The notes: generated from the sequence alone by a model not told the origin. A stretch of DNA of 64,000 nucleotides from an uncultured bacterium (GCA_963729625.1 CAVSOU010000008.1:1-64000), one strand, 5' to 3'. Positions 2,298-27,526 are shown, numbered from the stretch's first letter. A program made the numbers and translations.

Positions 2298-2409
2298 TTG
2301 GCAGAGCGACTTCTTCCTGCACGAGCGCGCCTCCACGGCCGACCACCGCGCACGACAGCACCAATGCCAGCAGCAGGCCTTCCTTCCTGCTGCGCGATGG
2401 GGTGTAGCA
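2298..2409 (-). repeat. comM: comM fragment A (leader plus about codons 1-25, start codon CTG, degenerate)
   Basis: Aligns to about 20317-20430; encodes LLALVLSCAVVGRGGALVQEEV versus MLAMVLSCAVVGLDGALVQVEV. Confidence 0.85.
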
Positions 2410-2487
2410 TAGGGAGGGGACTTCTTCGTCTTGGCGCGATGCAGAAGCCCGGGCGGACACAGACGGATTGAGATGCGCCCTCGGCCG

Positions 2488-2762
2488 TCAGCATTTACGC
2501 GAGACGTTCTCTATGTCTGTCGTTGTGCAGTTGCCCAGAAGGTGCAAAATCACTTTGGGCGGAGAGCCGTGACCACGCTTATGTCGCTGAAATCGGAGTC
2601 TTTGGTGACGATGGTTAAGTCATGCATCTGGGCGTACGACCACACCTCGAGATCCGTCACCCTGTCGAGAGCAATCACTTCGGTGTGGGTGGCCTCAGGG
2701 TAGAGATCCACCAATCGGCTCGCCAGTCTTGCCGACAGGTTGTGGTCGAACAGCAGTCTCAT
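2488..2762 (-). pseudogene. DUF5615 PIN-like toxin, frameshifted near 2572
   Basis: MRLLFDHNLS...IVTKDSDF, continuing in a shifted frame as HGSPPKVILHLLGNCTTTDIENV. Confidence 0.8.
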
Positions 2763-2815
2763 GCGCGAACGATGAGGTGGTGCGCCTCGCGATCTGCCGC
2801 ATAGCTCAGGCAATC
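2759..2815 (-). pseudogene. C-terminal remnant of DUF433 antitoxin
   Basis: DCLSYAADREAHHLIVRA* with ATGA overlap into the DUF5615 gene. Confidence 0.65.
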
Positions 2816-2943
2816 TGTAGCACGCCATGCGTTCGGCAATGCCGCCTGCGCTCCAGCGGAACTCGATTTGGCCCATTTTCGTTCACAGACCTATCCGCGA
2901 ACAGCCCCAGTGGTTCTCAGCGCTCTCCCCAATTCGCTTAGCA

Positions 2944-4113
2944 TCAATAGACGCATGCGTGTGCCTCATCCGAAAACGCACGCAACAACTGCGGCTCGGC
3001 CTCGAAGAAGTGGTCCGAGGGAGAAAGGATATACCCTCCATTGCCTCCCGCGGCCTCGAAGCATCGTCGTACCTCGGCTCTTGTGGCCTCGGGCGTACAT
3101 CCCACAAAGAAATGGAACTGATCGAACCCTCCGATCATGCACACCTTGTCGCCGATGCGGCGCTTAGCCTCGGCCAGATCGACGTCGGCCCCCATGCCTT
3201 CAGGCGTGAAGGTCTCCATGGCATCAGGCCGCATGGCAGCCACACGGTCCAGGAGCGGCATCATGCCGCCGCACGTGTGGTACACGACCCGTTGGCCGGC
3301 GCGGTGGAATTCACAGATAAGTTCGCTGTCGTAGGGTGCGACGAAGTCATCGAACAACTTGGGCGAGATAACGGTGGATGAAGCCGCGCCGCCACCAAGC
3401 TCGATCAGGTCGTAGCGCGCCCCCTTAAGAGACTCAATGTAGGTCTTCTTCTTGGCTCGCAAGATCCCCAGCAACGCGTGCACCCATGCCGGATCGTCAT
3501 ACGTGGCAAGGATGAGGCCTTGTATATCGAACACGCACGCGGCATCTTGCCAGCAACCCGCCTGGCCATACGAGATATCAAAGCCAGCGCCCGAGCCCCG
3601 TACCATGCCCCGCTCGCCGTAAGTGTCGGCTGTCTTGTTCACGGACTCGACGTCGCATGCCGGCACAGGCATGAACTCGGCAATGAGATCGATGTCTTCC
3701 TTGCGCTTGATCAAATACTCGGTCACCCACGTCGTATGCTCATTTGACTGCAGTACGGTGGTGAGCGTGCCCTTTGGTGTTACGTAGCGGTAGCGCGTGG
3801 TCGTGTGTTCGTGGCCGGGAATGTCTTCACTGTAGACGCGCCACTGGTCGCTCACAATACGTCGGACGGGGCCCAGCAAGGTCGCAATAGGTTCTGGATG
3901 CTCTGGATCGTGGTACTGGCCATCGGCCGGCTTGGTCGGCGCCGCCCAAATGATCGGATCAAGATCAAAATGGTCGAAGAAGTCCTGGGTCGACATGCCG
4001 CGCATCGTTGTGTCCAGGAACGACGTCATGACATGATGGGTAGTGACCGGCAGCCGGTCAAGCGTCTTCATATCCAGCGCCGACAAGAATCGCTGCTTCG
4101 ATGTCAGTTGCAT
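2944..4113 (-). CDS. Uroporphyrinogen decarboxylase/MtaA-like family protein (paralog 1)
   Basis: TSKQRFLSAL..DRLPV, ISPKLFDDFVAPY, YHTCGG, GGYILSPSDH; RBS GGAGG. Confidence 0.85.
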   Translation of the reverse strand: MQLTSKQRFLSALDMKTLDRLPVTTHHVMTSFLDTTMRGMSTQDFFDHFDLDPIIWAAPTKPADGQYHDPEHPEPIATLLGPVRRIVSDQWRVYSEDIPGHEHTTTRYRYVTPKGTLTTVLQSNEHTTWVTEYLIKRKEDIDLIAEFMPVPACDVESVNKTADTYGERGMVRGSGAGFDISYGQAGCWQDAACVFDIQGLILATYDDPAWVHALLGILRAKKKTYIESLKGARYDLIELGGGAASSTVISPKLFDDFVAPYDSELICEFHRAGQRVVYHTCGGMMPLLDRVAAMRPDAMETFTPEGMGADVDLAEAKRRIGDKVCMIGGFDQFHFFVGCTPEATRAEVRRCFEAAGGNGGYILSPSDHFFEAEPQLLRAFSDEAHACVY

Positions 4114-4632
4114 TCGTGTCCTCCCCTCGGTTCGGCAAATGACGTGTGGATATCCTAGCTCAGCCGCGTCGCGCGCCCATCGCGCAACCAGATCACCCAA
4201 CACTACTCACGCGCGATCGCGATGCAGCCGATGCCGCGCACCTTCGCGCTGCTCGGTGGTATTCCATACTGCAAAGCTTGAGGGCAGAGGCCGTCTCTTG
4301 CCTAAGTGCTCGACCATGGTCTTGGATCCTCCGTCATTGCTCGAGCAGAACTGTTGGCCCACGTCGCGGGTCGTCTAGAACGGACGTTTGCGTACGATCT
4401 TGAAGGTGTAGGCGTCGTCACACGGTCGCACGCCGGGACAGGAGATCGTCAGCCCGTCGGGCGTCTGCCGCCAGTCAAGATGTCCTTCGTTGCCTAGCAT
4501 CGACACCGAGTCGATTTCCGAACCATACAGAGCGCGGCGCCCCGTCAGCCTGGTGCCCGCCGACGTGATTGTAAGCTCACACGCGCCGGAGAGGCAACCT
4601 AACCGCGCAGGAAATCGAAAGGTTGGCTTGTC

Positions 4633-5466
4633 GTGCGCTTCTCGCTTTACTCGCCTATCGCGAAGCTTGCCAGCTACGTCCTCCTGATCCTGCTGGCGGC
4701 GGCGGTCATATTTCCGGCGCTATGGCTCTCGATCAGTGCCTTCAAGGACTCGTCCGAGATCTTCGCTCACCCATTCTCACTTATTGTGCATCCGGACGCG
4801 GATAACCTCGTGCAAGCGTGGCAGATGGCGCATTACGACCAGCTCTTTGTGAACAGTATTATCATCACCAGTTTGTCGGTGTGTGGCATTCTGGCGTTCG
4901 AGGGGGCGGCAGCTTACGCGTTTGCTCGTCTCGACTTTCCAGGCCGGAACGTGCTCTTCATCATCTTCATGATTGGACAGATGGTCCCCGCGCAAATGAT
5001 CCTTCTCCCATCGTTCGTTGAGATCTCCTGGATAGGGTTGACCGACACGAAGCTAGGACTGATTCTCCAATACCTGAGCTGGGCTCCCTTTGCTATCCTG
5101 TTCCTGCGTGCCAGCTTCGTGGCGGTGCCGGTGGAGATCGAGGAAGCCGCGATAATCGATGGGGCCGGGCGACTGGTCATCTTGGTCAGGATCATGCTGC
5201 CCATGACTAAGGCGGCTTTCGCCACCATCGCCACGGTCTACACGCTGTGGATCTGGAACGACTTCCTCTTCCCGTTGACCTACCTGCGGTCCGCCTCGAA
5301 CTTCACCGTTCCCCTAGGACTGGCGACATTCCAGGGCATGTTCACCACCTACTGGGGACAGCTGGTCGGAGCGATCTGCATAGCCATCTGGCCGCCTATG
5401 ATTCTATACATTTTGCTGAGCAAGCCGATCCAGTCCAGCCTTGCCAGCGGCGGCGTCAAACTCTAG
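4633..5466 (+). CDS. Carbohydrate ABC transporter permease (MalG-type)
   Basis: AYAFARLDFPGR, EAA motif EIEEAAIIDGAG, WNDFLFP. Confidence 0.9.
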   Translation: MRFSLYSPIAKLASYVLLILLAAAVIFPALWLSISAFKDSSEIFAHPFSLIVHPDADNLVQAWQMAHYDQLFVNSIIITSLSVCGILAFEGAAAYAFARLDFPGRNVLFIIFMIGQMVPAQMILLPSFVEISWIGLTDTKLGLILQYLSWAPFAILFLRASFVAVPVEIEEAAIIDGAGRLVILVRIMLPMTKAAFATIATVYTLWIWNDFLFPLTYLRSASNFTVPLGLATFQGMFTTYWGQLVGAICIAIWPPMILYILLSKPIQSSLASGGVKL

Positions 5467-5515
5467 CGCGTGGAGCATTGGCCGGCGCCTGTCAGGCGCT
5501 CTGGGGGAGATTGCG

Positions 5516-6733
5516 ATGAATGGGCGAGACCGCGTGCTCGCGGCGCTGAACCACGAAGAAACTGAACGAGTTCCTCTCGACCTTGGGGCGCACCGGTCAT
5601 CCGGAATAGCTGCTATCGCCTATCCTAAGCTGCGAGCGTATCTTGGCCTGCCCCAAAAGCCCGTCCGCGTCTACGACTTCGTCCAGCAACTCGCCGTAAT
5701 CGACGACGATGTCTTGGATCTCTTTGGCGCCGACGCCATCGAGATGGGGCGCGGTTTCGCCTTGGAGGAGAAGGACTGGAAGGAGTGGACGTTGCCCGAT
5801 GGGACGCCCTGCCAGATTCCGGCCTGGACCAACCCCGTGCGCGACGGCAAGAGATGGGTGGTACGCTCCAAGACCGGCAGATTGATCGGCCAGATGCCCG
5901 ACGGAGCATTGTACTTTGAGTCGTGCTATTACCCGTTCGCCGGTGAGAAGCCTGATCTCGATCATCTCGGCAGCGTCGAGGCAATCCTGTGGTCAACTCC
6001 GAGTCCGCCTGGCCCTCTGGGCGATGGCGCGGCCGGCGACGCGGCGCTCGTGGAGGGTGCCCGACTACTGCGCCAGCGAACCGACCGGGCCATTGTAGGG
6101 CTGTTTGGCGGGAATTTGCTGGAGTCTGGCCAGCTTTCGTTTCGACACGACATATTCATGACCATGCTGGCAGCCGAGCCCGAATACGTGCACTCCTATC
6201 TCGAGCGCTTGACCGAGCCGCACCTCGCCAACCTGGAGAAGTACCTCGGACTTGTTGGTCGCTACATCGACGTGATCCTGTTCGGCGACGATCTGGGCAT
6301 GCAGACCGGACCGCAGATCTCACCCAAGATGTACAGGGAGTTCTTCAAGCCCCGCCATACGCGGATGTGGAAGCGAGCGAAGGAGCTGGCCAACGTCAAG
6401 GTGCTGTTGCACTGTTCCGGCGGCGTTCGGCCGCTGCTTCCCGATCTCATCGAGGCAGGGCTGGACGCCATGAACCCCGTGCAGATCAGCTGTGCCGGCA
6501 TGGATGCCGCCGAGCTCAAGCGCGACTTCGGGAATGATCTCACGTTTTGGGGTGGTGGCTGCGACACGCGGTGGATCCTCGCGCATGGCACGCCCGCGGA
6601 GATTCGTAATCACGTAGGAATGCAGGTCGAGACCCTTCGTCCATGCGGTGGATTCGTGTTTCAGCAAGTGCACAATATTCTCGCGGACGTGCCGCCCGAG
6701 AATATCGTGGCCATGCTCGAAGCGGTCAACTAG
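5516..6733 (+). CDS. URO-D/MtaA-like family protein (paralog 2)
   Basis: GRDRVLAALNHEETERVPLD, GDDLGMQ, ISPKMYREFFKP, LHCSGG, GGFVFQQVHNI. Confidence 0.85.
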   Translation: MNGRDRVLAALNHEETERVPLDLGAHRSSGIAAIAYPKLRAYLGLPQKPVRVYDFVQQLAVIDDDVLDLFGADAIEMGRGFALEEKDWKEWTLPDGTPCQIPAWTNPVRDGKRWVVRSKTGRLIGQMPDGALYFESCYYPFAGEKPDLDHLGSVEAILWSTPSPPGPLGDGAAGDAALVEGARLLRQRTDRAIVGLFGGNLLESGQLSFRHDIFMTMLAAEPEYVHSYLERLTEPHLANLEKYLGLVGRYIDVILFGDDLGMQTGPQISPKMYREFFKPRHTRMWKRAKELANVKVLLHCSGGVRPLLPDLIEAGLDAMNPVQISCAGMDAAELKRDFGNDLTFWGGGCDTRWILAHGTPAEIRNHVGMQVETLRPCGGFVFQQVHNILADVPPENIVAMLEAVN

Positions 6734-6969
6734 ATGACCCGTGCCGAAGGATCTCGCCGGACCACTTCTGCCGCCCGCCTCACGATCGACGCTCGAGGCC
6801 GCTCGCTGCGTAGCCCTGATTGGTCATACCCAGGTCATTAGGTGGGGTTCTATCTGCCGTGCTTCGACCACCGCCGGGAACGGACCCGGCAGCGCTCCGG
6901 CCGGGTGTTCCAGCCTACGGACCGCCTTCTACAAGCAGTCGGTAGCTATCGGAAATCGGGAGTATTCGT

Positions 6970-8480
6970 ATGCAACAACCCTACGAACCCAACTGGCGAT
7001 CCCTGCGCGAACATCACACGCCCCAATGGCTCAAGGATGGGAAGTTCGGTATCTACACGCACTGGGGCGTCTACTCCGTACCGGCCTGCGGACCAAACGG
7101 CACGTGGTACCCCTACAACATGTACCACAAGAACAAGGCGCTCGGACACCCTTCCGGCGTGGCCGGAAACCCGCAGTATGACTTTCACGTTGCGCAGTAT
7201 GGCGGGCCCGAGGTATTCGGCTACAAGGACTTCATCCCCATGTTCACCGCCGAGAAGTTCGACCCGGATGAGTGGGCGGAACTGTTCAAGCAGGCAGGCG
7301 CCCGCTTCGCCGGCCCAGTCGGCGAGCACCACGACGGCTTCACCATGTGGGATACCAAACTGTCCGAGTGGAGCGCGGTCAGGATGGGGCCAAAGCGCGA
7401 CGTGGTGGGCCAGCTCGAGAGGGCCATCCGCGGCCTGGGGATGCGGTTCATGGTCGCCCTTCATCACGCGGAGAATTGGTGGTTCTACCCGCACTGGGTG
7501 AAGGAGTATGACACCGCCGACCCGCGGTATGCCGGCCTATACGGGCCGCCGCACAACGCGGCTGGCCCGATCGGGCCAGCCGCGTCGCGACCCCAGGAGC
7601 GCGGCGCCGTATTCACCCATGTCTGGCCATTCGAGGACCAGGATAAGCCGAGCGAGGAGTTCCTCGACCAGTGGAAAGCCAAGACCCTCGAGGTGATCGA
7701 TAGATACCGTCCTGACCTGATGTGGTGGGATTTTGCCCTGGAACGCGTTCAGGAGCGTTACAAGCTGGAGTACCTAGCCTACTACTACAACAGGGCCGCC
7801 GAATGGGGCAAGGAAGTGGTAGTCACCTACAAGTGGAACCATCTCGTCCCAGGCTCCGCAGTCATCGACCTTGAGCTGGGCCGGTTCAAGGATCAGACCT
7901 ACCATGACTGGATTACCGATACCTCGGTCGACAACCAGGGCGCCTGGTCCTTCGTGCAGGACGCTGCCTACAAGCCGGTGAGCGCGCTGATCCACCATTT
8001 GGTGGACAACGTGAGTAAGAACGGCTATCTGCTGCTCAACGTGGGTCCGCGCGCCGACGGCACGATCCCGGACGAGGCGAAGGAACGCCTGCGCGGGCTG
8101 GGCAGTGGCTGGCGGTCAACGGCGAAGCGATCTACGAGACGGCACCCTGGATGGTCTACGGCGAGGGGCCGACCCAGATGACCGCCGAAGGTGCGTTCAG
8201 CGAGGAGCAGGAGGTGGAGTACTCGGGCCAGGACATCCGCTTCACCACAAAGGATGGCGCGCTGTACGCGATCTGCCTCGGCTGGCCTGGCAGGCGGGTG
8301 ACCCTGGCATCCGTGGCACCGTTGCTGTACGAGTCGGAGATCCGCTCAGTGACCCTGCTGGGACACGAGGGCGCGCTTGCCTGGAGCCTGAGCCCGGAAG
8401 GGTTGACTATTGAGACACCGAACCAGCGGCCCTGCGACCATGCCTATGTGTTCAAGATCTCTCGCGGGAAGCCATTCTGA
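6970..8480 (+). CDS. Alpha-L-fucosidase (GH29), single frameshift near 8101
   Basis: KFGIYTHWGVYSVP, EHHDGF, DNVSKNGYLLLNVGP; continues as QWLAVNGEAIYET...DIRFT in ORF 8151..8480; shift lies at a G run. Confidence 0.9.
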
Positions 8481-8502
8481 GTGAGATATGGTCGCGTTCC
8501 GG

Positions 8503-8534
8503 CTCCTCCGGCCGGGCTATTCCTGCCGGAGGAG
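8503..8534 (+). terminator. Hairpin downstream of the fucosidase
   Basis: CTCCTCCGGC...GCCGGAGGAG 10-bp stem. Confidence 0.5.
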
Positions 8535-8559
8535 TATCGGTGGCAGGCGTGTATTCCTT

Positions 8560-8760
8560 CCCGCAGGTGCCCCACCAGCGCCGCCAGGTGCTCCACCGGG
8601 ATGATCGTCACACCCTCCACCAGGGCCGCTTCCTGCGCGTCCACCGCCGGCACGAACACGGTGGTGATGCCGTGCTCGCGCGCCAGGGCGACCATCGGCA
8701 GGATGCCGTTGGTGTGGCACAGCGTGCCGTCCAGTCCCAGCTCGCCCAGGAAGAGGCAGC
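8560..8760 (-). repeat. comM: comM fragment B (about codons 101-167)
   Basis: CLFLGELGLDGTLCHTNGILPMVALAREHGITTVFVPAVDAQEAALVEGVTIIPVEHLAALVGHLR, near-identical to 19891-20091. Confidence 0.92.
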
Positions 8761-8969
8761 GATCCACCCGCGCTACGCGCGTCCGTCACGCGTCGGGAAT
8801 GTAACAATGGTGCCGAAGTCACCGAAGTACGGGGCCTGGCCGGCACTTTGACGCGCGCCGGGCGCCCTACCGCGGCTATACTCGAATTCAAAGCTGAGAA
8901 TGCGGCGTGGGACTCGCGGAGTTAGATCAGCTGCATAGTGCTTGGCAGTTCTCGAAAGGAGACCTTGCC

Positions 8970-9983
8970 ATGGAATCTCGTGAGCGAGTCATCCGCGCAA
9001 TAGGTTTCTCCAAGCCGGATCGACCGCCAATCCAGCACGCCATCCTGCCCGCCGCCCAATATCATTACGGAGCCGCGCTGAAGCAAATCACCGACGCCGT
9101 GCCAGAGGACTTCGGCTGGGGGTTGTTGCCTGATCTGCCTGCCGAGAAGCTTCCACCGCTGTACAAAGAAGGAGAACAGCGAGACGAGTTCGGTACGCTC
9201 TGGAAGGTCACACATCAGGGTAGGTGCGGCATCCCCATCGACTATCCGATTGCTGCGGACTGGAGCAACTACGCAGACTATCGGTGGCCGACGTTCGGGG
9301 CCGGCGTGCCCAAGTATCGCCTCTATAGCGGGCACATGGAGGGAACGAGCGATTCATACTACGCGCGAGGCGCCTGGATCACTTTCTTCGAGCAACTTCA
9401 ACAACTGCACGGGTTCGAGGCGACCCTCGTGGATCTTGCAACGGATCGCCCTGAGATCTACCGTCTGCGCGACGACCTGCTGCGGTTCAACCTGGACTGG
9501 CTTGATCGATGGCTTGCACATGACTACCAGGGGCTGTATTTTGCGGACGATTGGGGTTCCCAGACAAGTCTGCTGATCTCACCGCGCATGTGGCGCACAT
9601 TCTTCAAGCCTGTCTACGCAGCCATGTTTTCCAAGGTCAAAAGAGCGGGCCTGCATGTCTGGTTTCACAGCGACGGCTACATTACCCCGATCTTGCCGGA
9701 TCTGCTCGAGCTCGGGGTCGACGTGCTAAACTGCGAGCATTCGGTGATGGGTCTCGAGAGCTTGAAGCCTTTTGTAGGCAAGATCTGCTTCCGCACGGAC
9801 CTTGACCGGCAGCACGTCCTGCCTTTCTTCAAGCCTGGCGACATAAAGCCATACATCTGGCATTTGTTCGAAAGTCTTGGCACCCCGGCTGGGGGGATCG
9901 TCGCATCCGGCGACGTCGACGAAGATGTGCCGCTCGCGAATATTGAGGCTATGTACCAGGCATTCCTCGATTTCCGCTATTGA
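8970..9983 (+). CDS. URO-D/MtaA-like family protein (paralog 3)
   Basis: SRERVIRAIGFSKPDRPP, ADDWGSQ, ISPRMWRTFFKP, FHSDG; RBS AAAGGAG. Confidence 0.85.
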   Translation: MESRERVIRAIGFSKPDRPPIQHAILPAAQYHYGAALKQITDAVPEDFGWGLLPDLPAEKLPPLYKEGEQRDEFGTLWKVTHQGRCGIPIDYPIAADWSNYADYRWPTFGAGVPKYRLYSGHMEGTSDSYYARGAWITFFEQLQQLHGFEATLVDLATDRPEIYRLRDDLLRFNLDWLDRWLAHDYQGLYFADDWGSQTSLLISPRMWRTFFKPVYAAMFSKVKRAGLHVWFHSDGYITPILPDLLELGVDVLNCEHSVMGLESLKPFVGKICFRTDLDRQHVLPFFKPGDIKPYIWHLFESLGTPAGGIVASGDVDEDVPLANIEAMYQAFLDFRY

Positions 9984-10192
9984 CTTACGCGGAGATCGCA
10001 ACGATTGAAGCACGACCAGCGCGAAGAGTGAGAAGCAGCTGTGTCGCGGGACCGCATCTCCTGTACTAGCAGCGTGACAGAGCAAGGAGGACCGCCCACG
10101 CGATCCGATGCTGTGCTTGCCGCGGCCCCATGTGTTCGGTTACGATGGCGCCAAGGCCAATTGCGGCCCGGCGACTGAAAGGACGTGACACG

Positions 10193-11224
10193 ATGGAGGC
10201 GAAACGGGCTCTCTGGAAGCGACGGTGTTTTCTGGCGGCTGCAGGCCTGCTGGTGGCAGGTCAAATCGCAACGAGTGTCGGTGTCGCTAGCGCCGGCGTG
10301 GCCAAATCTGTGAGCCCGCCGCTGACGGCGACGAAGGCCCTATGTATGGGGAAGACCTACAAGATCGGCTACGATGTCTTCTCGTCGACCCAGCCATTCG
10401 CGAACCTTGTCACCAAGGGGTTAAAGGATGCGGCGAAGCGCATCGGCTGCGTGACTGTGATCACGACGGTGGATAACCTGAACGGCCCCGTCGCTATTGC
10501 CAACATCAAGACGATGCTGAACGAAGGAGCGAACGCGATCGTCGACTTCCAGGTCCTGGCCCCCTACCAGCCTGCGATCGCCCGGGTCCTCAAGGACGCG
10601 AAGGTTCCCGGCGTTGCAGTCGTGGGAGCGGACCTGCCAGGCTATCCTTCCGTCGGCGCCGACAACTACGCCGCGGCGGTGAAGGACGGACAGGCACTTG
10701 CGGCGGCAGCAAAGAAGAAGTATCCAGGTGTCGTCCCGTACCTGGCGGTCGCTGCTGAGCCGACCTCTGGTGCGATCATCATGCAGCGCTACTACGGCGC
10801 CGTGGCTGGCGCCAAGATGGTGTACCCGACCCTGCCAAACAGCCACATCATCGAGGTCGTCAGTGATGGGACGGAGTCTGGCACGTACAACAATGCCGTG
10901 TCCGCCTTCTCCCGGGTTCCCTCGGGCGGCGTCGTGCTGACTACAGGCGTGAACGACGAGGTCTCGCACGGCATGTACAGCGCAGCCGTTGCGAGGAAGC
11001 TGACCTTCCTGGTCAACTCGTTCGGTGGAGATCCGTTCGGTCTGGACCAGGTCTGCAGGGACCGCACCCACTATGTCGGGGCGCTCTATCTTGAGCCGGA
11101 GAAGTGGGGCGAGTCCTCGCTCGTGATCGTTCTGCGCATGGCTAACAAGCAGCCGTACCCGAGCGCGGTCGGCATCCAGGGGACCGAGGTAACGGCGAGC
11201 AATCCAATCGCTGGTTGCAAGTAG
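10193..11224 (+). CDS. Sugar ABC transporter substrate-binding protein (RbsB-like)
   Basis: Signal peptide; VGADNYAA; periplasmic binding type I pattern; paralog of 14905..15996. Confidence 0.8.
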   Translation: MEAKRALWKRRCFLAAAGLLVAGQIATSVGVASAGVAKSVSPPLTATKALCMGKTYKIGYDVFSSTQPFANLVTKGLKDAAKRIGCVTVITTVDNLNGPVAIANIKTMLNEGANAIVDFQVLAPYQPAIARVLKDAKVPGVAVVGADLPGYPSVGADNYAAAVKDGQALAAAAKKKYPGVVPYLAVAAEPTSGAIIMQRYYGAVAGAKMVYPTLPNSHIIEVVSDGTESGTYNNAVSAFSRVPSGGVVLTTGVNDEVSHGMYSAAVARKLTFLVNSFGGDPFGLDQVCRDRTHYVGALYLEPEKWGESSLVIVLRMANKQPYPSAVGIQGTEVTASNPIAGCK

Positions 11225-17915: not shown

Positions 17916-17941
17916 CAATCCGGCGCAAGCGATCGCAGACA

Positions 17942-18874: not shown

Positions 18875-20392
18875 CTACACCTGCTTGCGGGCCCGGTACT
18901 GCAGCGCTTCCGCCGCATGGATGGCCCTGATCTGCTCCGCTCCCGCCAGGTCGGCGATCGTCCGCGCCAGCTTCAGCGTGCGATGGTAGGCCCGTGCGCT
19001 CAGGTGCAGCTGCTGCATCGCCGACTTCAGCAGCCCCTGCGCCGCCTGGTCCGTCGTGCAGTACTTCCGTACCTCGCTCGGCCCCATGTCCGCATTGCTG
19101 ACCATGGCCGTGCCCGCAAACCGCGCCTGCTGCCGCTCCCGCGCTCCCTGCACCCGCGCCCGAACCGCCCGAGACGGCTCGCTCTCCCCTTGCCCCGTCA
19201 GCTTGTCGTACTGCACCCGCGGTACCTCGACGTGAATGTCGATGCGGTCCAGCAGCGGCCCGGACAGCCGGTGCTGGTACTTGGCGATGGTCGCCGGCGA
19301 ACACGTGCACTCCCGCACGCTGTCCCCCGCGTACCCGCACGGGCACGGGTTCATCGCGCCTACCAGCATGAACTTGGCCGGAAAGGTGACCGATCCGTTG
19401 ACCCGGCTGATGGTCACGGTGCCGTCCTCCAGCGGCTGGCGCAGCACCTCCAGCCCGGCCTGGCCGAACTCCGGCAGCTCGTCCAGAAACAGCACCCCGC
19501 GGTGCGCCAGCGAGATCTCGCCCGGCCGCGGCCAGCGCCCGCCCCCCACCAGCCCGGCGTTGCTGATCGTGTAGTGCGGTGCCCGAAACGGCCGCTCCCG
19601 CACCATCGGCTGGTCCGAGGAGAGCATCCCGGCCACCGAGAAGATCTTCGTCGCCTCCAGACTCTCCTCCGCCGTCATCCGCGGCAGAATACCCGGCAGC
19701 GCCCGCGCCAATAGCGTCTTGCCTGCTCCGGGCGCGCCGAACATCAGCACGTTGTGCCCGCCCGCCGCCGCTACTTCCAGCGCCCGCTTCACGTGCTCCT
19801 GCCCCCGCACAGCGGCGAAGTCGGAGGCCACCGCAGGCTCCACGTCCAGGTCGAGCGCCAGCGGCTCCGCCGCCGCGATCGGCCGGTCGCCCCGCAGGTG
19901 CCCCACCAGCGCCGCCAGATGCTCCACCGGGATGATCGTCACCCCCTCCACCAGCGCCGCTTCCTGCGCGTCCACCGCCGGCACGAACACGGTGGTGATG
20001 CCGTGCTCGCGCGCCAGGGCGACCATCGGCAGGATGCCATTGGTGTGGCGCAGTGCCCCATCCAGTCCCAGCTCGCCCAGGAACAGGCAGCCCGTGTCGT
20101 CGAAGACGATCTGCTCCATGGCCCGCAGCACGCCCACGGCCATCGGCAGGTCATAGGAGGGGCCTTCCTTCCGGATGTCTGCCGGGGCCAGATTGACCGT
20201 GATACGCTTGAGCGGAAACGCCAGGCCCGAATTCCTGATTGCAGCCCGCACCCGCTCCTTGGCCTCGTTTACCGCCGCGTCGGGCAGGCCGACGATGGTG
20301 AAGGCCGGTAAGCCGTTGGCGAGATCGACTTCCACCTGCACAAGCGCGCCGTCCAGGCCGACCACCGCGCACGACAGCACCATCGCCAGCAT
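18875..20392 (-). CDS. comM: ComM/YifB Mg-chelatase-like AAA+ ATPase (intact)
   Basis: IVGLPDAAVNEAKERVR, ITVNLAPA, Walker A GAPGAGKT, PFRAPH, LFLDELPEF, NPCPCG, SGPLLDRID, LKLARTIADL. Confidence 0.96.
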   Translation of the reverse strand: MLAMVLSCAVVGLDGALVQVEVDLANGLPAFTIVGLPDAAVNEAKERVRAAIRNSGLAFPLKRITVNLAPADIRKEGPSYDLPMAVGVLRAMEQIVFDDTGCLFLGELGLDGALRHTNGILPMVALAREHGITTVFVPAVDAQEAALVEGVTIIPVEHLAALVGHLRGDRPIAAAEPLALDLDVEPAVASDFAAVRGQEHVKRALEVAAAGGHNVLMFGAPGAGKTLLARALPGILPRMTAEESLEATKIFSVAGMLSSDQPMVRERPFRAPHYTISNAGLVGGGRWPRPGEISLAHRGVLFLDELPEFGQAGLEVLRQPLEDGTVTISRVNGSVTFPAKFMLVGAMNPCPCGYAGDSVRECTCSPATIAKYQHRLSGPLLDRIDIHVEVPRVQYDKLTGQGESEPSRAVRARVQGARERQQARFAGTAMVSNADMGPSEVRKYCTTDQAAQGLLKSAMQQLHLSARAYHRTLKLARTIADLAGAEQIRAIHAAEALQYRARKQV

Positions 20393-20434: not shown

Positions 20435-20749
20435 CTATTCCCGGCTGCGGAGGATCGTAGCGAGCACCCTCGGGTCGCGTCGGCCATGGAGCACGGCGAC
20501 CACCCACAGCGGCTTCTCATCAGGCGCGTAGGCGATGAGATAGTCGTACAGCCGCACGAAGCGCAAGGACTGCGACATCAGATCTGGACGTCGATGCCCC
20601 TGATGCGGAAAGGGGACGAGGTTCCGTATTCGCTCGAAGATCTCGTCCACCACCCGGTCCGCGGCGTCGGGGCCATCCGGTGCGATATAGGCGTGAATCT
20701 CGCGCAGATCCTGCAACACTCCAGGATGGAGCCCGTACCGCATCTTCAT
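20435..20749 (-). CDS. RelE/ParE family toxin
   Basis: QDLREIHAYIAPDGPDAADRV, FPHQGHRRPDL, YLIAY, VVAVLHGRRD. Confidence 0.9.
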   Translation of the reverse strand: MKMRYGLHPGVLQDLREIHAYIAPDGPDAADRVVDEIFERIRNLVPFPHQGHRRPDLMSQSLRFVRLYDYLIAYAPDEKPLWVVAVLHGRRDPRVLATILRSRE

Positions 20750-20994
20750 GCTGTGCGTGTACGCTTTGCCGCGAATTCACCTTTCAAGAGGGCATGGGCT
20801 TCTTCGCCATCAATGGGTTGGACTCTTCCACTCTTGAGGTCGTCGTAGCGGCGATCCAGCAGCTGGCGCACATCCGAAAGGGCCGCGAAGTACCCGGTCA
20901 TGGCTTCCGCGAAGAGCTCGTCTAGCGGGCGTCCGGTGTCGGTGACCCAGCGATCGATCTTGGCTTGCAGGTCGGCAGTGAGGTGTATTTCCAT
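20746..20994 (-). CDS. Antitoxin (ParD-like) of the RelE/ParE pair
   Basis: 82 aa, ATGA overlap with toxin, C-terminus DDLKSGRVQPIDGEEA; RBS GGAGG. Confidence 0.8.
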   Translation of the reverse strand: MEIHLTADLQAKIDRWVTDTGRPLDELFAEAMTGYFAALSDVRQLLDRRYDDLKSGRVQPIDGEEAHALLKGEFAAKRTRTA

Positions 20995-21096
20995 ATCCTG
21001 GTACCTCCACTCCACATCAATTTCTCTCCATCGTATTCTCTCCATCGTAGCACGGCACGTGCGGCTACGGCCTCTCGACGGTCCACAGGTACACTG

Positions 21097-21506
21097 CGCC
21101 CGCCCGCCGCCGCCACCTCCAGCGCCCGCTTCACGTGCTCCTGCCCCCGCTCGGCAGCAAGGTCGGAGGCCACCGCAGGCTCCACGTCGAGGTCGAGTGC
21201 CAGCGGCTGGGCCGGCGCGATCGGCGCCTCGCCCCGCAGGTGCCCCACCAGTGCCGCCAGGTGCTCCACCGGGATGATCGTCACCCCCTCCACCAGGGCC
21301 GCGTGCTGCGCGTCCACCGCCGGCACGAACACGGTGGTGATGCCGTGCTCCCGCGCCAGCGCTACCATCGGCAGGATGCCGTTGGTGTGGCGCAATGTGC
21401 CGTCCAGACCCAATTCACCCAGGAACAGGCTGCCCGTGTCGTCGAAGACGATCTGCTCCATGGCCCGCAGCACCCCCACGGCCATCGGCAGGTCGTAGGA
21501 CGGGCC
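21097..21506 (-). repeat. comM: comM fragment D (about codons 77-212)
   Basis: GPSYDLPMAVGVLRAMEQ...ALEVAAAGG, then diverges (RSVPV). Confidence 0.92.
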
Positions 21507-21726
21507 CTACGTCCAGAATTACCCATACCTGCTGCAACGGTCCGCAAATGATGGTCGGTGGGGGCGCGGCCCTGCACGAGTTGCAGTTATGTCGGATAGT
21601 TCCTATGGTCGCTGTCATCAGCGAAAATGGGTATCGAGACCGGTTCGGCTCACCCGGCAGCGAGTTGATTGCGCAGGGCACCCTAACGCCTGCTCACCAC
21701 TATCAAGCGCGTGCACCGTGCGTCTC

Positions 21727-22040
21727 CTAACCCCATTCGGTCAGCAATCGGCCCTCAGGAGAGAACTTCTGGATGTGATCCTTTGTGGCTACGTAGACGA
21801 CGCCCTGCTGGTCAACGGCGATACCCGTGGCAGCATTCTCGTCGCCGAATGGTCCGCTCTTCCATGCTATCAGCTGGCGCCCATCCGCTGATAGCTTGAC
21901 TACCCGACTTGCACCGGTGTCGGTAACGTACACGTTGCCGTGGCTGTCGACCGCGACGTCAATAGGTCTGCGGAATCGGCCTTCACCTCCCCACTGAGCG
22001 AGCAGGTGCCCGGAGGCAGAGTACACCAGAACGCGGTTGC
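21727..22040 (-). pseudogene. NHL-repeat protein fragment
   Basis: FRRPIDVAVDSHGNVYVTDTG, GIAVDQQGVVYVA, IQKFSPEGRLLTEWG; no clear N-terminus. Confidence 0.7.
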
Positions 22041-22223
22041 CACGCTAAGGCAAACTGTAGCGGGTGTACGCTACATGCCTCATATCGTACTTGAGAATGT
22101 GGTGCTACATTCGGTACGGTTCACAGTGGTGCCTAGGCGAAAACCAAAGGAGGGGTTGGACTCGACGGTAGGCTTTCCTGCGGAACCCGCCGTCGCCAGC
22201 GCCGGTCCCAGACACGACGGAGG

Positions 22224-23123
22224 TTGACTCGTATGCGGGGAACAACGGCACGTCGGCTATTGACTGTATCGGTGTTGGCAATCCCCCTGTCGCTTGCTGG
22301 TCAGAGTCACGCTCGTAGCTCAGTCGCGAGTCACCTGCGGTCGCCGATTGTTGCGAAGCGCGTCCACTCAACCGTGACGGGCGTGCAGAACATCTTCAAT
22401 AATATGAACATCGGAGGCGTGGGCAACGGCCCGACCTCTCCCACCGTCTTCACCATAGCTCGGCCATTTATGATCACGCTGATCATGGACTACCACTGGA
22501 ACAATGGGCGTGGCCAGCCGGGCGGCACCATTGCCCTGCGATCGGCGGGCGGCAGGGTCTACGGCCCTTGGAAGGTACTCACCAGTGGCGGTCAAGGCGG
22601 CGCACCGAACGTCACCTGGACTGCCCGGCCGTACGTGGTCATTCCGGCGGGGACCTATATGGTGATCGACTCGGCCCCAGCTACCTGGTCTCAGAACGCC
22701 GAGTCCGGGGGCAGGGGGTTCTCCATGGTCCAGGGGGCACCGGCCAATACGCCCAGGGTGAAGCCGACCGCCACACCTGCCGCCCCGCCGACCGCGATTC
22801 CGGCCCAGCGGTTGCATTTCTCTGCATCGGTATCGAAAAGCGTGGCCGAGAGCAACGCCGCCGTCCTCCGCATCGCCGGTTATCTCGATTCCGGGAAGCT
22901 GCAAGCCTTCGTCGACGCACTCTCGCTGCACGATCGCGCGCTCTTGGGGCATACGGTCCGCATGTCGGTCGAGACCGCCGCCAGGGTTGGTCGTGCCATG
23001 AGGATCGCGCGAGTAACCGCAGCGTCGGTGGATTTCGTCTTCTACAGTCTGATCGTCGACGGGACGACATACACCTTTGATACGATCAAGGAGGCAGGTT
23101 CGTGGAAACTAAACGAGTTCTAG
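22224..23123 (+). CDS. Secreted hypothetical protein (beta-rich domain, Pro/Thr linker, C-terminal domain)
   Basis: Signal-like N-terminus; YHWNNGRG, GTYMVIDS.PATWSQN; PTATPAAPPT linker. Confidence 0.7.
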   Translation: MTRMRGTTARRLLTVSVLAIPLSLAGQSHARSSVASHLRSPIVAKRVHSTVTGVQNIFNNMNIGGVGNGPTSPTVFTIARPFMITLIMDYHWNNGRGQPGGTIALRSAGGRVYGPWKVLTSGGQGGAPNVTWTARPYVVIPAGTYMVIDSAPATWSQNAESGGRGFSMVQGAPANTPRVKPTATPAAPPTAIPAQRLHFSASVSKSVAESNAAVLRIAGYLDSGKLQAFVDALSLHDRALLGHTVRMSVETAARVGRAMRIARVTAASVDFVFYSLIVDGTTYTFDTIKEAGSWKLNEF

Positions 23124-24640
23124 TCCTGTCCCCGTTCATCGCCCTGGTGCTTCTGCTGCCGGGACGGGCAGCCGCCTACGACGACGCGCTTGAGGGCGCC
23201 CCGCACGGCACGATCAACTCGCTGGCGATCAAGATGTTTGAAACGCATATCATGCCTGCCGACAAGTACCTCAAGACCGCCTCGCTCAACGGTTTTTCTA
23301 CGGCAGGTATCGCTTGGGACGCTTCCGACGGCAGCAGACTGACCCCTCCGGAAATCGCCGTGCAAAGGAGAAAACACCTGAAGGACTGGATAATTGACGG
23401 GGGTTATTCGGCAGATGAGCCGGAAGCAACGATGGCTCTCGCCCACTTCTATGATCCCAAGGCTCCCGCAGGGCAGCACTACCTCACCGATCAACAGTTT
23501 CTCGTAAACTTCGTGAGCCACTATAACAGCGAGTACGCTAATCCGGGCATCGATGCCGTGCAATGGGCGTTCCATGGCGAGAACTGGGGCACGGCCTTCG
23601 ATCAGAAGTATTCCTGGGCAGACGGGAAGGACTACCTCACACAAGCCCTCGCGAGTCCGGACGCGGGAAATGTGAACTATGGCCAGGCATGGCGCTCCCT
23701 GGGAGAGACGATGCACCTGATGGCGGACATGACCGTACCCGCGCATGTGCGGAATGACGGCCATGCCAAAGCATTGGGCGATCCAGATCCCTACGAGAGC
23801 AGCACGACGGGTAAGTTGGTCGCCGCCAATGCCGGGTACACGCCCGCGCCACTCGATTATGGCCAGAGTCCCGAGCAGCTGATGATCAGCGTAGCGGCCT
23901 ACGTGAACACCAACTTTCTCTCACAGGACACAATCCCGCTCCCGCCCGGCATCAGCAGCCCCTGGCACAAATACGCTCTGCCTTCCATCGACGGGCTGAC
24001 TCCGGATAGCAAAGGCTACCTGCACCGCACGATCAATGGCCGGGATATTCGCATAGCGAAAACCAGATCCCTTTGGTCGAAGCTGTTCGCTACCGGCCAG
24101 CAGTTGTATATGGTCGACAGCAACGTCGTCGACGACCAGCGGACAATCCTTGTACCGACCGCGATCAAGGCGGACGAGATGCTGGTGAGCAAGTTCCTGC
24201 CGCGCTTCAAGGTGACCGCTACGGTGGTTCCAGCCGAGAACGAGTACACCATGGTGGGTGGTATACGCGGCGTCTTTAGCGGCGAATGGCCGGCGATAGA
24301 CACGGCGAAGGTGCGCAACGGCGCCAGGATCATGATCACCGACGGCAAGACAGGTGGGATTACCAAGATCCAGGTCCAGCTCATCGATCCGTCAAAGGAC
24401 TTCAACTCGTTCAGCTATGGCTTCAAGGCGAAGCCCGGCGACAGCGTGAGGCTGGAATACGATCTCGGCGGTTATGTCGTGCGATCGAGCACGATCAAGC
24501 TTGCCGCAACCGACTGCCCCGACAACCTCGATCCCACGAGCCCGATGTACATACTTTGCCATCACAACCCGGGAACACCGGTCATCGAACCACCACCGGG
24601 GTCTATAGCCTCCCCGGTGCCGACGTCAAACCCTGGGTAG
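23102..24640 (+). CDS. Secreted Zn-dependent phospholipase C/P1-nuclease-like protein
   Basis: Signal peptide; HGTINSLAI, HFYDP, LGETMHLMADMTVPAHVRNDGH, DPYE. Confidence 0.7.
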   Translation: METKRVLVLSPFIALVLLLPGRAAAYDDALEGAPHGTINSLAIKMFETHIMPADKYLKTASLNGFSTAGIAWDASDGSRLTPPEIAVQRRKHLKDWIIDGGYSADEPEATMALAHFYDPKAPAGQHYLTDQQFLVNFVSHYNSEYANPGIDAVQWAFHGENWGTAFDQKYSWADGKDYLTQALASPDAGNVNYGQAWRSLGETMHLMADMTVPAHVRNDGHAKALGDPDPYESSTTGKLVAANAGYTPAPLDYGQSPEQLMISVAAYVNTNFLSQDTIPLPPGISSPWHKYALPSIDGLTPDSKGYLHRTINGRDIRIAKTRSLWSKLFATGQQLYMVDSNVVDDQRTILVPTAIKADEMLVSKFLPRFKVTATVVPAENEYTMVGGIRGVFSGEWPAIDTAKVRNGARIMITDGKTGGITKIQVQLIDPSKDFNSFSYGFKAKPGDSVRLEYDLGGYVVRSSTIKLAATDCPDNLDPTSPMYILCHHNPGTPVIEPPPGSIASPVPTSNPG

Positions 24641-24706
24641 GTGCGCCAGGTTGCGGTGCAGCGGCCTAGCCGGGGAGGCGCCCGGCGGTGTATGCTGCTC
24701 ACCGTG

Positions 24707-25447
24707 TCAACGCTGAAGCGCACCATCGATGACGGCGCGGATCACGGGACATGACGTGGTTGCAAGACCGAACTCCGGCGCGCGTAGCGCTCCCCCCATG
24801 AAGACATTTTCACGGCGAAACCGCATGTTGCTTTCCGAGGGCATGAGCGCCGCAAAATGAATCTCCGAAGCGCCACTTTCGCGCACGATCCGGGCCACGT
24901 TGCGCGGCGTAATTCCCCCACCCGGCATCACGATCAGGCGTGACCCGGCCCGACCAACAAGTTCGGTAATGACCGAGAGTCCTTCAAGCACGCTGTCTTC
25001 CTGTCCGGAGGTGAGAACGCGCTCCACGCCGAGGTCGACGAGCGTTTCGAGCGATTCGAAGGGATCTTTCGCCATATCAAACGCACGATGGAATGTGACG
25101 GCAAGCGGCCGCGCAGCATCGATCAGCAGCCTGCTTCGTGCCGCGTCGATCCGTCCATCCTCCGTCAGCAAACCGATCACCACGCCATCAGCGCCCTCGG
25201 CGCGCGCCGTCTGCACGTCGGTACGCATCACGGCAAATTCATCGTCGGAGTAGAGAAAATCGCCACCGCGAGGGCGTATCATCACATGCAGCCCGATGCC
25301 GTCAACCGAGCGCGCGCGCCGAATCAGGCCGACGCTCGGCGTCGTCCCACCCTCAAGCAGATTCGCACAGAGTTCAACCCGATGTGCTCCGGCTTCACGT
25401 GCGGCGCGAACACCTTCGGTAGAGTCGACACAGATCTCAAAACGCAT
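24707..25447 (-). CDS. cutC: Copper homeostasis protein CutC
   Basis: EICVDS, RVELC..L.EGGTTPS, MIRPRGGDF, TFHRAFD, RVLTSG. Confidence 0.93.
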   Translation of the reverse strand: MRFEICVDSTEGVRAAREAGAHRVELCANLLEGGTTPSVGLIRRARSVDGIGLHVMIRPRGGDFLYSDDEFAVMRTDVQTARAEGADGVVIGLLTEDGRIDAARSRLLIDAARPLAVTFHRAFDMAKDPFESLETLVDLGVERVLTSGQEDSVLEGLSVITELVGRAGSRLIVMPGGGITPRNVARIVRESGASEIHFAALMPSESNMRFRRENVFMGGALRAPEFGLATTSCPVIRAVIDGALQR

Positions 25448-25617
25448 GGGGACACCTCTCTTCGCTTTTCAATGGCGGCACACTATCCGCCCGATACACG
25501 CTGGACGGCGAGAATGATCAGCAGCAGACCGGCGAATGCGACGGCTAGCACGGCGCGAGGGACAGTTCCCCCGGAGTGGACGACGGCGAACACGGCGATC
25601 GCTAACAGCAGCACGCC

Positions 25618-25848
25618 TCATGGAGAGCCTGAGACCTCCACGGCGGCCGTGCCGGACTCTGCTCCTTCAATCTGGACCGGCCTCGTCAGCACGACCTGCT
25701 CTGTATACTGGCGCTGGCGCACTTGAATAGGCGCTCCAGGCTGGGCAACTTCAAGTGCCGCGCCAATAGTCGTGAGATCACCGGTGCCTGATGGGCAGAC
25801 CACGATGCACTTTCCCGCGTGCCTGCCATCCGCCACAGAATTGCTCAT
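25618..25848 (-). pseudogene. N-terminal stub of a parallel beta-helix (pectinesterase-like) protein
   Basis: IVVCPSGTGDLTTIGAALEVAQPGAPIQVR..QYTEQVVLTRPVQIEG, then stop. Confidence 0.55.
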
Positions 25849-26014
25849 GACCAAACTCGCTGACACTTCACCGAGCCGCGACCACCATCACGTGCCGGCA
25901 TGCAGATAGAGGACGCTCCGTCATCCAGTATGAACGAACTGGTGCCCGCCTGCTGTGTCCTTGCGTACATTTCATCGCATGTTCGTGCGCTCGACTCGGA
26001 GTTGCTGCAATACC

Positions 26015-26525
26015 TGCGCCCATGTCCGAGCAGGTGATCCGTCGGTATCCGCAGTCTCGGCAGCCCCGTGCGCTGCCATTTTGCCAACAACAGCAGCGAA
26101 TCACAATGCACTTGAAAGCATACTCATGTGATGCTGAAAGCTCACCGACAATACCGCCAATCCCAGCAATCCGAACGGTACGCATGTCAGGCCTCCACCT
26201 CCGTCGCCGCACCACCTTATAGAAAGGAGCCCCGGGCGTCCTCATCGATGCTCGCCTGCTTCGCCCAGCAAGGGCACGACGCCACGCTTGTCCTGCTGAC
26301 CCAGCCGTTGAACCGAGTCCTCGCCCACCACATCCTGCACGTCCGCGACCACTGCCTGCGTGCGCCGACGCGTCACACGAGCAAGCACCTTGATGGAATC
26401 TGGACGCTGATACTCCGCGTATGGCGCGCGCAGAGCTGCCAGCACCTGATCTCTTATGGACTCAACGGGCGCCGGACTGGCACCATCCAGCGTGAAGGCT
26501 CGTCCTGTCCGATGCGTGATTGTAT
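26015..26525 (-). repeat. Conserved non-comM segment (copy 2), split by 350 extra bp
   Basis: 26015-26141 and 26489-26525 match 17942-18102; AGC at both boundaries of the extra DNA. Confidence 0.75.
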
Positions 26526-27232
26526 TCACAACATCAGCACATTGTGCCCGCCCGCCGCCGCTACTTCCAGCGCCCGCTTCACGTGCTCCTGCCCCCGCAC
26601 AGCGGCGAAGTCGGAGGCCACCGCGGGCTCCACGTCCAGGTCGAGTGCCAGCGGCTGGGCCGGCGCGATCGGCCTTTCGCCCCGCAGGTGCCCCACCAGT
26701 GCCGCCAGGTGCTCCACTGGAATGATCGTCACCCCCTCCACCAGGGCCGCCTCCTGCGCGTCCACCGCCGGCACGAATACCGTGGTGATGCCGTGCTCGC
26801 GCGCCAGGGCGACCATCGGCAGAATGCCATTGGTGTGGCGCAGTGCCCCATCCAGTCCCAGCTCGCCCAGGAACAGGCTCCGGGGACCCTCGGGATGATC
26901 GTCGAAGACGACCTGCTCGCCGGCCCGCAACACCCCCACCGCCATCGGCAGGTCATAGGACGGGCCTTCCTTCCGGATGTCTGCCGGGGCCAGATTGACC
27001 GTGATGCGCTTGAGCGGAAACGCCAGGCCCGAATTCCTGATTGCAGCCCGCACCCGCTCCTTGGCCTCGTTGACCGCTGCATCGGGCAGGCCGACGATGG
27101 TGAAGGCAGGGAGACCGTTGGCCAGGTCTACCTCGACCTGCACGAGCGCGCCGTCCAGGCCGACCACCGCGCACGACAGCACCATCGCCAGTATCGGGTC
27201 GCTACCTCACTGCTGCGCGATGGGGTGTAGCA
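26526..27232 (-). pseudogene. comM: comM fragment E (leader plus codons 1-217, start codon ATA) ending GHNVLML*
   Basis: ORF 26526..27185 is near-identical to the ComM N-terminal half; small insertion HPEGPR; stops just before Walker A. Confidence 0.93.
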
Positions 27233-27309
27233 CAGGGCTGCTGCCCAGAGTGGGGGACTATACGGGCTTGACGGCCTTGGCAGCGCGATTGGGCGCAGGA
27301 ACGTTGGGG

Positions 27310-27526
27310 GCATCTCGGTCAGATCCAGAGGCGCTCTGCCCGACAGCAAGACGCAGAATTGCAGCTCCCCGCCCAACGCCGCGACGTAGGTGGCCACGGT
27401 GGCGACGCGAATGTCCGGATTGCTCTCGGTCTGGCGCACTCAGTCCGCGCTGACGCCTAGCCGCTCGGCCATCTGAGTCTCGCTCAGGCCAGCTGCGCGC
27501 CGCTGGCCGTCCCAATTCTCAGCCAT
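27310..27526 (-). pseudogene. HigA-like XRE antitoxin remnant with internal stop
   Basis: RRAAGLSETQMAERLGVSAD*VRQTESNPDIRVATVATYVAALGGEL. Confidence 0.72.

Follow-up and report, generated by a model that had tools for sequence, protein, structure and literature searches.

Truncated comM copies and toxin-antitoxin genes around an intact comM in an uncultured Chloroflexota bacterium: a candidate scar array at an integration hotspot

The stretch of DNA analyzed here, called the window throughout, comprises the first 64 kb (64,000 nucleotides) of contig C8 (CAVSOU010000008.1:1-64000) in the assembly GCA_963729625.1 of an uncultured bacterium of the Chloroflexota lineage. This assembly (5.4 Mb, 21 contigs, 87% complete, 5% contamination) is referred to as G000 and its relatives as G001 and so on. 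The window contains an intact copy of comM and, on both sides of it, five partial comM copies (relics A to E) in the same orientation, interspersed with toxin-antitoxin (TA) genes, their remnants and further cargo. The comM copies are:

18875-20392, minus strand: intact comM (comM/YifB), 505 aa
18875-20432, minus strand: intact comM together with a 40-bp upstream stretch that is common to relics E and A and to comM of G001 and G003
26530-27234, minus strand: relic E, position -40 to codon 218; 91.9% DNA identity to the intact gene over 665 bp; Pfam ChlI 8e-46
21095-21517, minus strand: relic D, codons 77-215; 90.3% DNA identity; junction type y
18107-18381, minus strand: relic C, codons 127-218; 91.3% DNA identity; junction type x; downstream of intact comM
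8560-8760, minus strand: relic B, codons 102-167; 95.0% identity; between cargo genes with no verified TA gene nearby
2298-2409, minus strand: relic A, position -37 to codon 24; 88.3% identity over 77 bp

The intact gene and its partial copies

The intact gene matches the TIGR00368 model over its whole length (positions 1-499 of 499) with 586.7 bits at a cut-off of 362.4. Its Walker A codons can be read directly in the alignment, identifying the product as a ComM/YifB Mg-chelatase-like AAA+ ATPase. In every comparison made, homology between comM copies ends about 40 bp 5’ of the start codon. When intact comM was compared half by half (5’ and 3’) with G001 and G003, synonymous divergence (dS) gave no clear signal of separate origins, and a scan for promoters and terminators between 17.6 and 27.8 kb yielded matches at chance level only.

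Searching the whole genome with the intact gene (tblastn and blastn) we found eight partial pieces in addition to the one intact comM. Five of them are those of the window, where a first-pass annotation made from the sequence alone had placed six co-oriented comM pieces, one intact and five partial; our search confirmed both their number and their location. The other three are located in the final 2.3 kb of contig C7, on its minus strand, and cover codons 197-216, 110-150 and 150-216. The end of C7 and the start of C8 probably belong to one array inside which both contigs break. All eight pieces are co-oriented (P ~0.004; this and the probability figures below are rough, as the comM pieces are not mutually independent). 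E and D are located upstream of intact comM, and C, B, A and probably the three C7 pieces downstream, so that the intact gene does not stand at one end with all repeats to one side.

All eight pieces are drawn from codons 1-218, and the 3’ half is present once in the genome, in line with what had been noted for the copies of the window. Only contig C13 departs from this, with a 63-bp match to the final comM codons at 86% identity. It is situated in the middle of this 26-kb contig (region C13:7310-9230), about 1 kb from a PIN_3 and HTH_17 pair on the other strand, and may represent a further small relic close to TA genes. On the left, the pieces begin at scattered points, namely codons 1, 77, 102, 110, 127, 150 and 197. 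Relic E contains an unbroken frame of 219 codons (26526-27185), corresponding to the N-terminal ChlI/Lon-like domain plus linker, which closes at a stop codon created just beyond its junction. Relics C and D are 99.2% identical across their whole 257-bp overlap, for which gene conversion between neighbors is the simplest reading. Two units on C7 share a 308-bp repeat, composed of a comM end and the start of a TA gene, at 97% identity.

Five of the eight pieces end at nucleotides 637-654 of comM, just 5’ of the Walker A codons. Here they meet three mutually unrelated flanks, which we termed x (E and C), y (D) and Y (both C7 copies reaching the site). At junction x comM is left after the second base of codon 218, at y about 10-17 nt and at Y about 6 nt before that point. 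The two x flanks are related to each other; their first 41 bp belong to a 91% alignment and by themselves are about 88% identical, and 130 bp more match at 78% (z = 14; none of 500 shuffles reached the score):

25618-26529, minus strand: x flank after E, with small ORFs of 95, 125 and 82 aa; 41 bp plus 130 bp homologous to the flank of C
17939-18106, minus strand: remnant of the x flank after C, homologous to the flank of E

Together with the break in comM of G006, which falls within 2 nt of junction x and is described below, four junction types lie inside 17 nt of a 1518-nt gene (P ~1e-5). Three unrelated flanks meeting comM within 17 nt are not expected of random deletion; for these five pieces there is a common crossover position in the target gene. 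Searching for the 24-nt sequence preceding Walker A with up to four substitutions returned comM copies only, and an exact-pattern scan of public genome contigs for junction x gave no match. The ORFs of the x flank could not be assigned to any family in Pfam (E<=1), NCBIfam (E<=0.1) or PHROGs (E<=0.01); recognition is low, and in the atlas they fall into unnamed clusters.

We also assessed how the pieces diverged. Compared codon by codon with intact comM, relics E, D, C and B and piece C7a showed dS values of 0.16-0.31 and ratios of non-synonymous to synonymous divergence (dN/dS) of 0.09-0.21 (relic E: dS 0.22, dN/dS 0.11), and E, D, C and B have retained 92-97% amino-acid identity. For the intact gene against its orthologues, dN/dS was 0.08-0.11 (G001) and 0.08-0.16 (G003), values near those of the pieces. 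When differences were assigned to branches with G001 and G003 as outgroups, synonymous to non-synonymous counts on the pieces’ own branches were 17:6, 14:8, 10:5, 4:2 and 10:4; they were 2:7 for A and 6:9 for C7mid, which are older, decaying relics. Since the relic branches are mostly synonymous, the pieces diverged as parts of working genes. Divergence under constraint in turn means that they came from other lineages and were fragmented later, which rules out simple local duplication. Segmental duplication of comM followed by decay in place would readily produce clustered and co-oriented pieces, but a dN/dS of 0.09-0.21 at a dS of 0.16-0.31 reflects divergence under selection and the flanks at the junctions differ; we regard this explanation as very improbable. 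At least five alleles are represented (intact, E, C/D, B and C7a/b), and the divergence pattern points to repeated horizontal input. Variation through silent cassettes was considered and rejected, the differences being mostly synonymous.

TA genes and cargo

Four TA-type features were found next to comM copies in the window:

20435-20749, minus strand: ParE toxin (Pfam ParE_toxin 1.3e-16), ending 43 bp before the start of intact comM
20746-21045, minus strand: antitoxin-like ORF with sub-threshold matches (Unstab_antitox 2.9e-4, RelB-like 0.0056)
~18573-18719, minus strand: fragment of DUF433, an antitoxin-type domain of TA systems (5.9e-7; positions 9-56 of 56), located after the stop codon of intact comM and before relic C
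2550-2876, minus strand: DUF5615 ORF, PIN-like toxin-type (Pfam 2.7e-20), 141 bp upstream of relic A

Flank y of relic D leads directly into the antitoxin-like ORF, which is followed by ParE and then by intact comM. An antitoxin-ParE pair had been proposed at this position; the ParE assignment is clear and its antitoxin partner is recognized below threshold only. On C7, flank Y contains an RHH (6.9e-9) and PIN (1.5e-12) pair. It is followed by comM codons 110-216, interrupted by 658 bp at codon 150, by junction Y and by a second RHH copy that is cut short (66 of 73 codons). The array thus contains adjacent toxin and antitoxin genes with family matches, as expected of type II TA systems, while DUF5615 and DUF433 are each present without a partner.

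Of the nine comM copies, seven have a verified TA gene or remnant within 200 bp, namely intact comM, D, C, A and the three on C7; relics E and B have no verified TA gene at this distance. The first-pass annotation had counted five of the six pieces of the window as TA-associated; by verified matches the number is four (D, intact, C and A). Its DUF433-DUF5615 calls were confirmed for the DUF433 fragment by C and the DUF5615 ORF by A, and found no support for a separate DUF433 gene upstream of DUF5615. The HigA-like remnant it had placed upstream of E and the HicB remnant after C matched nothing in Pfam, NCBIfam or PHROGs. Genome-wide there are 35 TA-type matches (22 PIN, 6 ParE, 7 DUF433), and three of these are located within 200 bp of a comM piece, compared with 0.06 expected (Poisson P 3.5e-5, a rough figure), which bears out the suspected TA enrichment. 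For the ParE-cassette antitoxin there are hundreds of relatives in metagenomes, the majority of them in a pair with ParE. None of 80 metagenomic loci (479 kb) with such relatives contained comM sequence or a relative of the G006 recombinase. The TA family is therefore ordinary cargo and not part of a travelling unit of TA genes and comM piece. Farther away in the window, a PIN-domain ORF (52316-52726, minus strand) and a small upstream ORF (52723-52977) form a TA-like pair unrelated to comM.

The remaining segments between the relics are occupied by cargo:

21727-25447, mixed strands: cargo between E and D, with an NHL-repeat fragment, two plus-strand ORFs (299 and 512 aa) and CutC
2944-17768, mixed strands: cargo around relic B, with five URO-D-like paralogs, parts of a sugar ABC transporter and a split alpha-L-fucosidase

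The 299-aa and 512-aa ORFs have no family in Pfam, PHROGs or NCBIfam, and in the atlas they match ‘hypothetical protein’ clusters only. The URO-D-like paralogs (2944-4203, 5441-6733, 8907-9983, 11473-12735 and 16728-17768) are interleaved with the sugar-type ABC transporter parts, and their nearest homologues in G001 (71-75% identity) are found on five different contigs or places. The alpha-L-fucosidase is split into overlapping ORFs for the catalytic domain (6970-8181) and the C-terminal domain (8151-8480), probably by a frameshift, which would reflect either a pseudogene or a sequencing error. Synteny was tried as a sign of foreign cargo and rejected. Cargo homologues are dispersed over many G001 contigs, and this scatter is uninformative because those of a control region on C10 are scattered just as widely.

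comM in related genomes

In a survey of 401 genomes of the phylum three candidates per genome were scored, so that it yields no fragment counts; ten genomes were searched again in full. G001, which belongs to the same genus and is assembled in 20 contigs, has an intact comM 92% identical to that of G000 and two relics downstream of it. One relic covers codons 293-383 and the other codons 176-441 without 206-282, that is, without the Walker-A region. This gap fits an insertion at the Walker-A site followed by deletion. Between the comM relics of G001 lies a 4.4-kb block with two nucleotidyl-transferase-type genes (L013 12817-17243), which is 90% identical to C10:1306950-1311371 of G000 at a usual genome identity of 65-82% and suggests recent transfer. 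A search of two further, fragmented genomes of the genus (G002, 83% complete, and G004, 90% complete) returned no match to comM.

Four relatives, G001, G013, G037 and G058, have an intact comM with partial copies in the same orientation behind it. In the single-contig genome G058, 3’ pieces of comM follow the intact gene at distances of 38 and 58 kb, and in G037 one follows at 14 kb; no recombinase was present among the ORFs scanned in these islands. TA genes adjoin comM in several genomes. G003 has a ParE pair just upstream of comM in opposite orientation; its ParE is 29% identical to that of G000 and the antitoxins cannot be aligned, so that the two pairs are independent TA arrivals at the -40 boundary. 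Within one family of the class, comM has an MNT-HepT or HEPN-MNT pair immediately after it. In G013 (L017 6379-8952) comM is followed by an MNT-HepT pair with overlapping stop and start codons and then by a second copy of codons 388-502. G007 (L018 10129-11209) has only codons 358-503, joined to MNT-HepT. The 3’ end of comM is likewise joined to MNT-HepT in G012 (L021 7135-7951), and a HEPN-MNT pair is located 3’ of comM in G011 (L012 763-1459). comM ends beside MNT-HepT are consistent with TA-adjacent DNA being shielded from deletion. G203 has no intact comM; on its contig C123, ten matches to comM fragments, some in each orientation, fall inside 15 kb.

The restriction to the 5’ half, which had been taken for a property of a comM-based system, is specific to G000. 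The relics of G001 reach into the 3’ half, and G058, G037, G013, G007 and G012 hold pieces of the 3’ end; the relatives, two complete genomes among them, show 3’-half trails or a split comM.

In two genomes comM adjoins recombinase genes. In G006, comM codons 1-218 abut a gene on the reverse strand for a 621-aa protein with Resolvase, Recombinase and Zn-ribbon domains, together with an HTH_17 gene. Relatives of this recombinase in public genome contigs were limited to its own contig and one weak, unrelated match. In G286, a complete genome in a single contig, codons 1-351 border on the gene for a large serine recombinase of 528 aa, with a tyrosine integrase next to it. The two comM parts of G286 (codons 1-351 and 317-503, overlapping by 35 codons) are separated by 231 kb (C1:2502591-2734614), with HTH genes near the 3’ piece, which looks like a very large integrated element.

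Origin of the array and comparison with known systems

On balance, we lean towards reading the region as an array of scars, devoid of a recombinase, at a hotspot of integration into comM, in which comM was kept or restored and TA genes are surviving cargo. Foreign DNA would have entered repeatedly at one site directly 5’ of the Walker A codons. In this phylum comM would serve integrative elements as a point of entry, with large serine recombinases driving some of them at least, and the conserved sequence ahead of Walker A would be one of the sites. The incoming DNA would have brought along a comM segment from another lineage, by which the gene was rebuilt through partial duplication or allele replacement; the older segment, displaced in each event, would have persisted as a truncated relic in the same orientation. 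Partial copies before or after an intact gene, seen in many genomes, are the trace that such rebuilding leaves. For the relics upstream of intact comM, two steps could account for the present order: entry of a type-x element with a comM segment from codon 77, resulting in E and a gene lacking its first 76 codons, followed by entry of a 1.3-kb unit (flank y, the ParE pair and a full 5’ segment from -40), resulting in D and the present comM. Thereafter the inserted elements would have eroded. TA modules are over-represented in what is left of them: small elements typically carry such modules, and losing a live TA pair through deletion between direct repeats should be penalized. We infer the serine-recombinase origin of the junctions, the order of events and the TA-biased survival.

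A simple 5’-replacement model predicts relics upstream only and leaves C, B, A and probably the C7 pieces unexplained. As a conjecture, these downstream relics might be 5’-truncated copies displaced by 3’-replacing events (compare G001, G013, G037 and G058). Later hits on these copies at that Walker-A site (flanks x and Y) would have been followed by deletion of their 3’ part. Such a sequence of events is plausible in view of the G001 relic without codons 206-282.

Besides the downstream relics, several observations weigh against a scar array of this origin. Its scattered left ends need added deletions or homology-driven events. No recombinase was found among the ORFs scanned in the array, tblastn for remnants of the G006 recombinase gave nothing below E = 1, and the nearest recombinase domains in Pfam Recombinase and Phage_integrase searches are one of the tyrosine type at about 140 kb and one of the serine type at about 240 kb. 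The first-pass annotation had already stated that the window lacks a recombinase, and this stood up to ORF, tblastn and Pfam searches. The element arm in G006 is not significantly similar to x, y or Y (49 to 348 of 500 shuffles matched the score), which makes the recombinase link positional only. Two complete TA pairs, the ParE pair and RHH-PIN, are all the array contains, most TA parts being remnants, and the largest segments between relics (E-D and C-B) have no verified TA gene. Finally, public reads come from one study with a small share, as unitigs of 170-340 bp at depth 2-3, and no listed piece bridges a junction.

The main rival to repeated integration is a shuffle by homology alone. Small circles of comM plus cargo, released by loop-out or aberrant excision, would re-enter by single-crossover (Campbell-type) recombination at any copy of comM, whether in the cell of origin or following transfer; the shared segment would be duplicated each time and the end point inherited from the founders. 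This would give two copies flanking an insert, as in G013 and in the order D, ParE cassette, intact comM, and it accommodates the 99.2% identity of C and D and the 97% identity of the C7 repeat. It does better than the scar array on variable left ends and on relics to either side of the intact gene. It does worse on the clustered junctions, as one founder cannot explain x, y, Y and the G006 element within 17 nt, and the 80 loci with antitoxin relatives, all free of comM sequence, also speak against it. Overall we consider it unlikely. Somewhat more doubtful still is an extension of the hotspot idea, in which the array would be the fossil record of an ongoing contest over comM. Hits ahead of Walker A would have crippled transformation-mediated curing and each would have been followed by repair with a comM segment acquired from a related lineage; TA modules at the junctions would be the elements’ insurance against curing, the at least five constrained alleles would count rounds of disruption and repair, and the 1.3-kb ParE units would be repair patches or self-restoring insertions.

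The annotation had instead proposed a comM-anchored cassette-accretion system, with the comM 5’ half as homology arm, replacement fragment or decoy target and TA modules as cargo or stabilizers. In the service of the host, the 5’ pieces would be homology arms, spare parts or silent cassettes by which DNA is captured or ComM varied. Co-orientation, TA enrichment and the open 219-codon frame of relic E would suit such a system, and the 4.4-kb cargo between the comM relics of G001 shows that capture of DNA between comM pieces takes place. Yet there is almost no protein variation among the mostly synonymous differences, A and C7mid are decaying, no recombinase was found, and relatives hold other parts of comM or a broken comM, the opposite of a conserved system. 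We judge it improbable. What holds of the proposal is the accretion of DNA around comM; nothing points to a dedicated system, given the missing recombinase, the TA remnants and the 80 comM-free loci. The idea of replacement fragments fits the pieces upstream of intact comM, which are diverged, once-functional alleles, and that of decoy targets is unlikely because every relic ending at a junction lacks the 3’ side of the site.

An assembly artefact, with strain variants of one comM locus chained together or contigs mis-joined at comM, would be in keeping with an incomplete 21-contig assembly with 5% contamination, with an array in which two contigs break (the start of C8 and the end of C7) and with pieces that differ by 5-10% among themselves, as is typical of co-occurring strains; the shallow public unitigs decide neither way. 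Chained haplotypes, however, should share neighbors, and the flanks are unrelated except for those of E and C at x and of the two C7 units. Moreover, the pieces are cut at both ends against non-comM DNA, which needs some real molecule, and assemblies made independently contain comparable structures (G058 and G286, each in a single contig, and G001 in 20 contigs). The chance of an artefact therefore seems slim. Pending read support, the array is real, and it is larger than first noted.

If so, the comM hotspot reaches beyond the diderm pathogens of the original descriptions into another phylum, where several other genomes, complete ones included, have comM trails or splits. It would also mean that disruption of comM can be followed by restoration, which bears on the role of ComM for or against mobile elements. 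According to the current reading, mobile elements break comM to escape removal by transformation, and here an intact gene persists among pieces of at least five other alleles. The value of the locus lies in this multi-allele record of repeated hits with the gene preserved. In these genomes comM fragments mark variable, horizontally acquired regions and are a likely cause of contig breaks.

In Proteobacteria, comM is described as a recurrent target of mobile elements at an orthologous position, always as a disrupted gene, in the accessible parts of two reports (Croucher et al. 2016, PMC4774983; a 2025 review, PMC12378983). The array shares with these AbaR-type and other elements a recurrent, position-specific target in comM across distant bacteria. 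The same parts of these sources describe comM as left interrupted, which is read as blocking transformation (PMC4774983, PMC12378983), whereas here, in Chloroflexota, intact comM persists. The locus is also not a single comM-disrupting island: the 5’ part is present in nine places and the 3’ part once, and no transposition or integration genes were found among the scanned ORFs. Our literature search returned no account of arrays of comM fragments around an intact gene, nor of comM-targeted elements in Chloroflexota.

In chromosomal superintegrons, TA cassettes are reported to hinder deletion between repeats. The comM array resembles them in having TA modules among co-oriented repeats, which would penalize loop-out deletions; it differs in that its repeats are gene fragments and complete TA pairs number two. 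An IntI-type tyrosine recombinase with attI, as expected of an integron, is lacking by the array, and none of the eight Phage_integrase matches in the genome lies within about 140 kb of it. In the accretion of integrative conjugative elements (ICEs) and cis-mobilizable elements, and in composite SCC at rlmH, recombinase-less elements flanked by att repeats stack at one site. Such arrays have short intact att sites and grow at one end of the target gene, whereas the comM array consists of long gene fragments with eroded ends.

The closest likeness is to the tandem ssrA islands of Dehalococcoides, a member of the same phylum. In these, co-oriented repeats of the target gene bound islands of non-core cargo in tandem, as the eight comM pieces do here, and a large serine recombinase is encoded on the reverse strand by attL, as one is at comM in G006 and G286 and not in the present array; 15 of 31 islands have no integration module, and this recombinase-less half is read as cis-mobilizable elements or fixed remnants, in the part of the source available (McMurdie et al. 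2011, PMC3146451), which also cites the concept of accretion. The ssrA islands, as described there, use the 3’ end of a small-RNA gene, and have 20-bp repeats, all of them located downstream (PMC3146451). The comM array in contrast has its site in the middle of a protein-coding gene, pieces of 70-700 bp from several alleles on both sides of the target, TA genes at the junctions and no recombinase. All in all it looks like a variant of tandem island accretion and not like a new system or machine.

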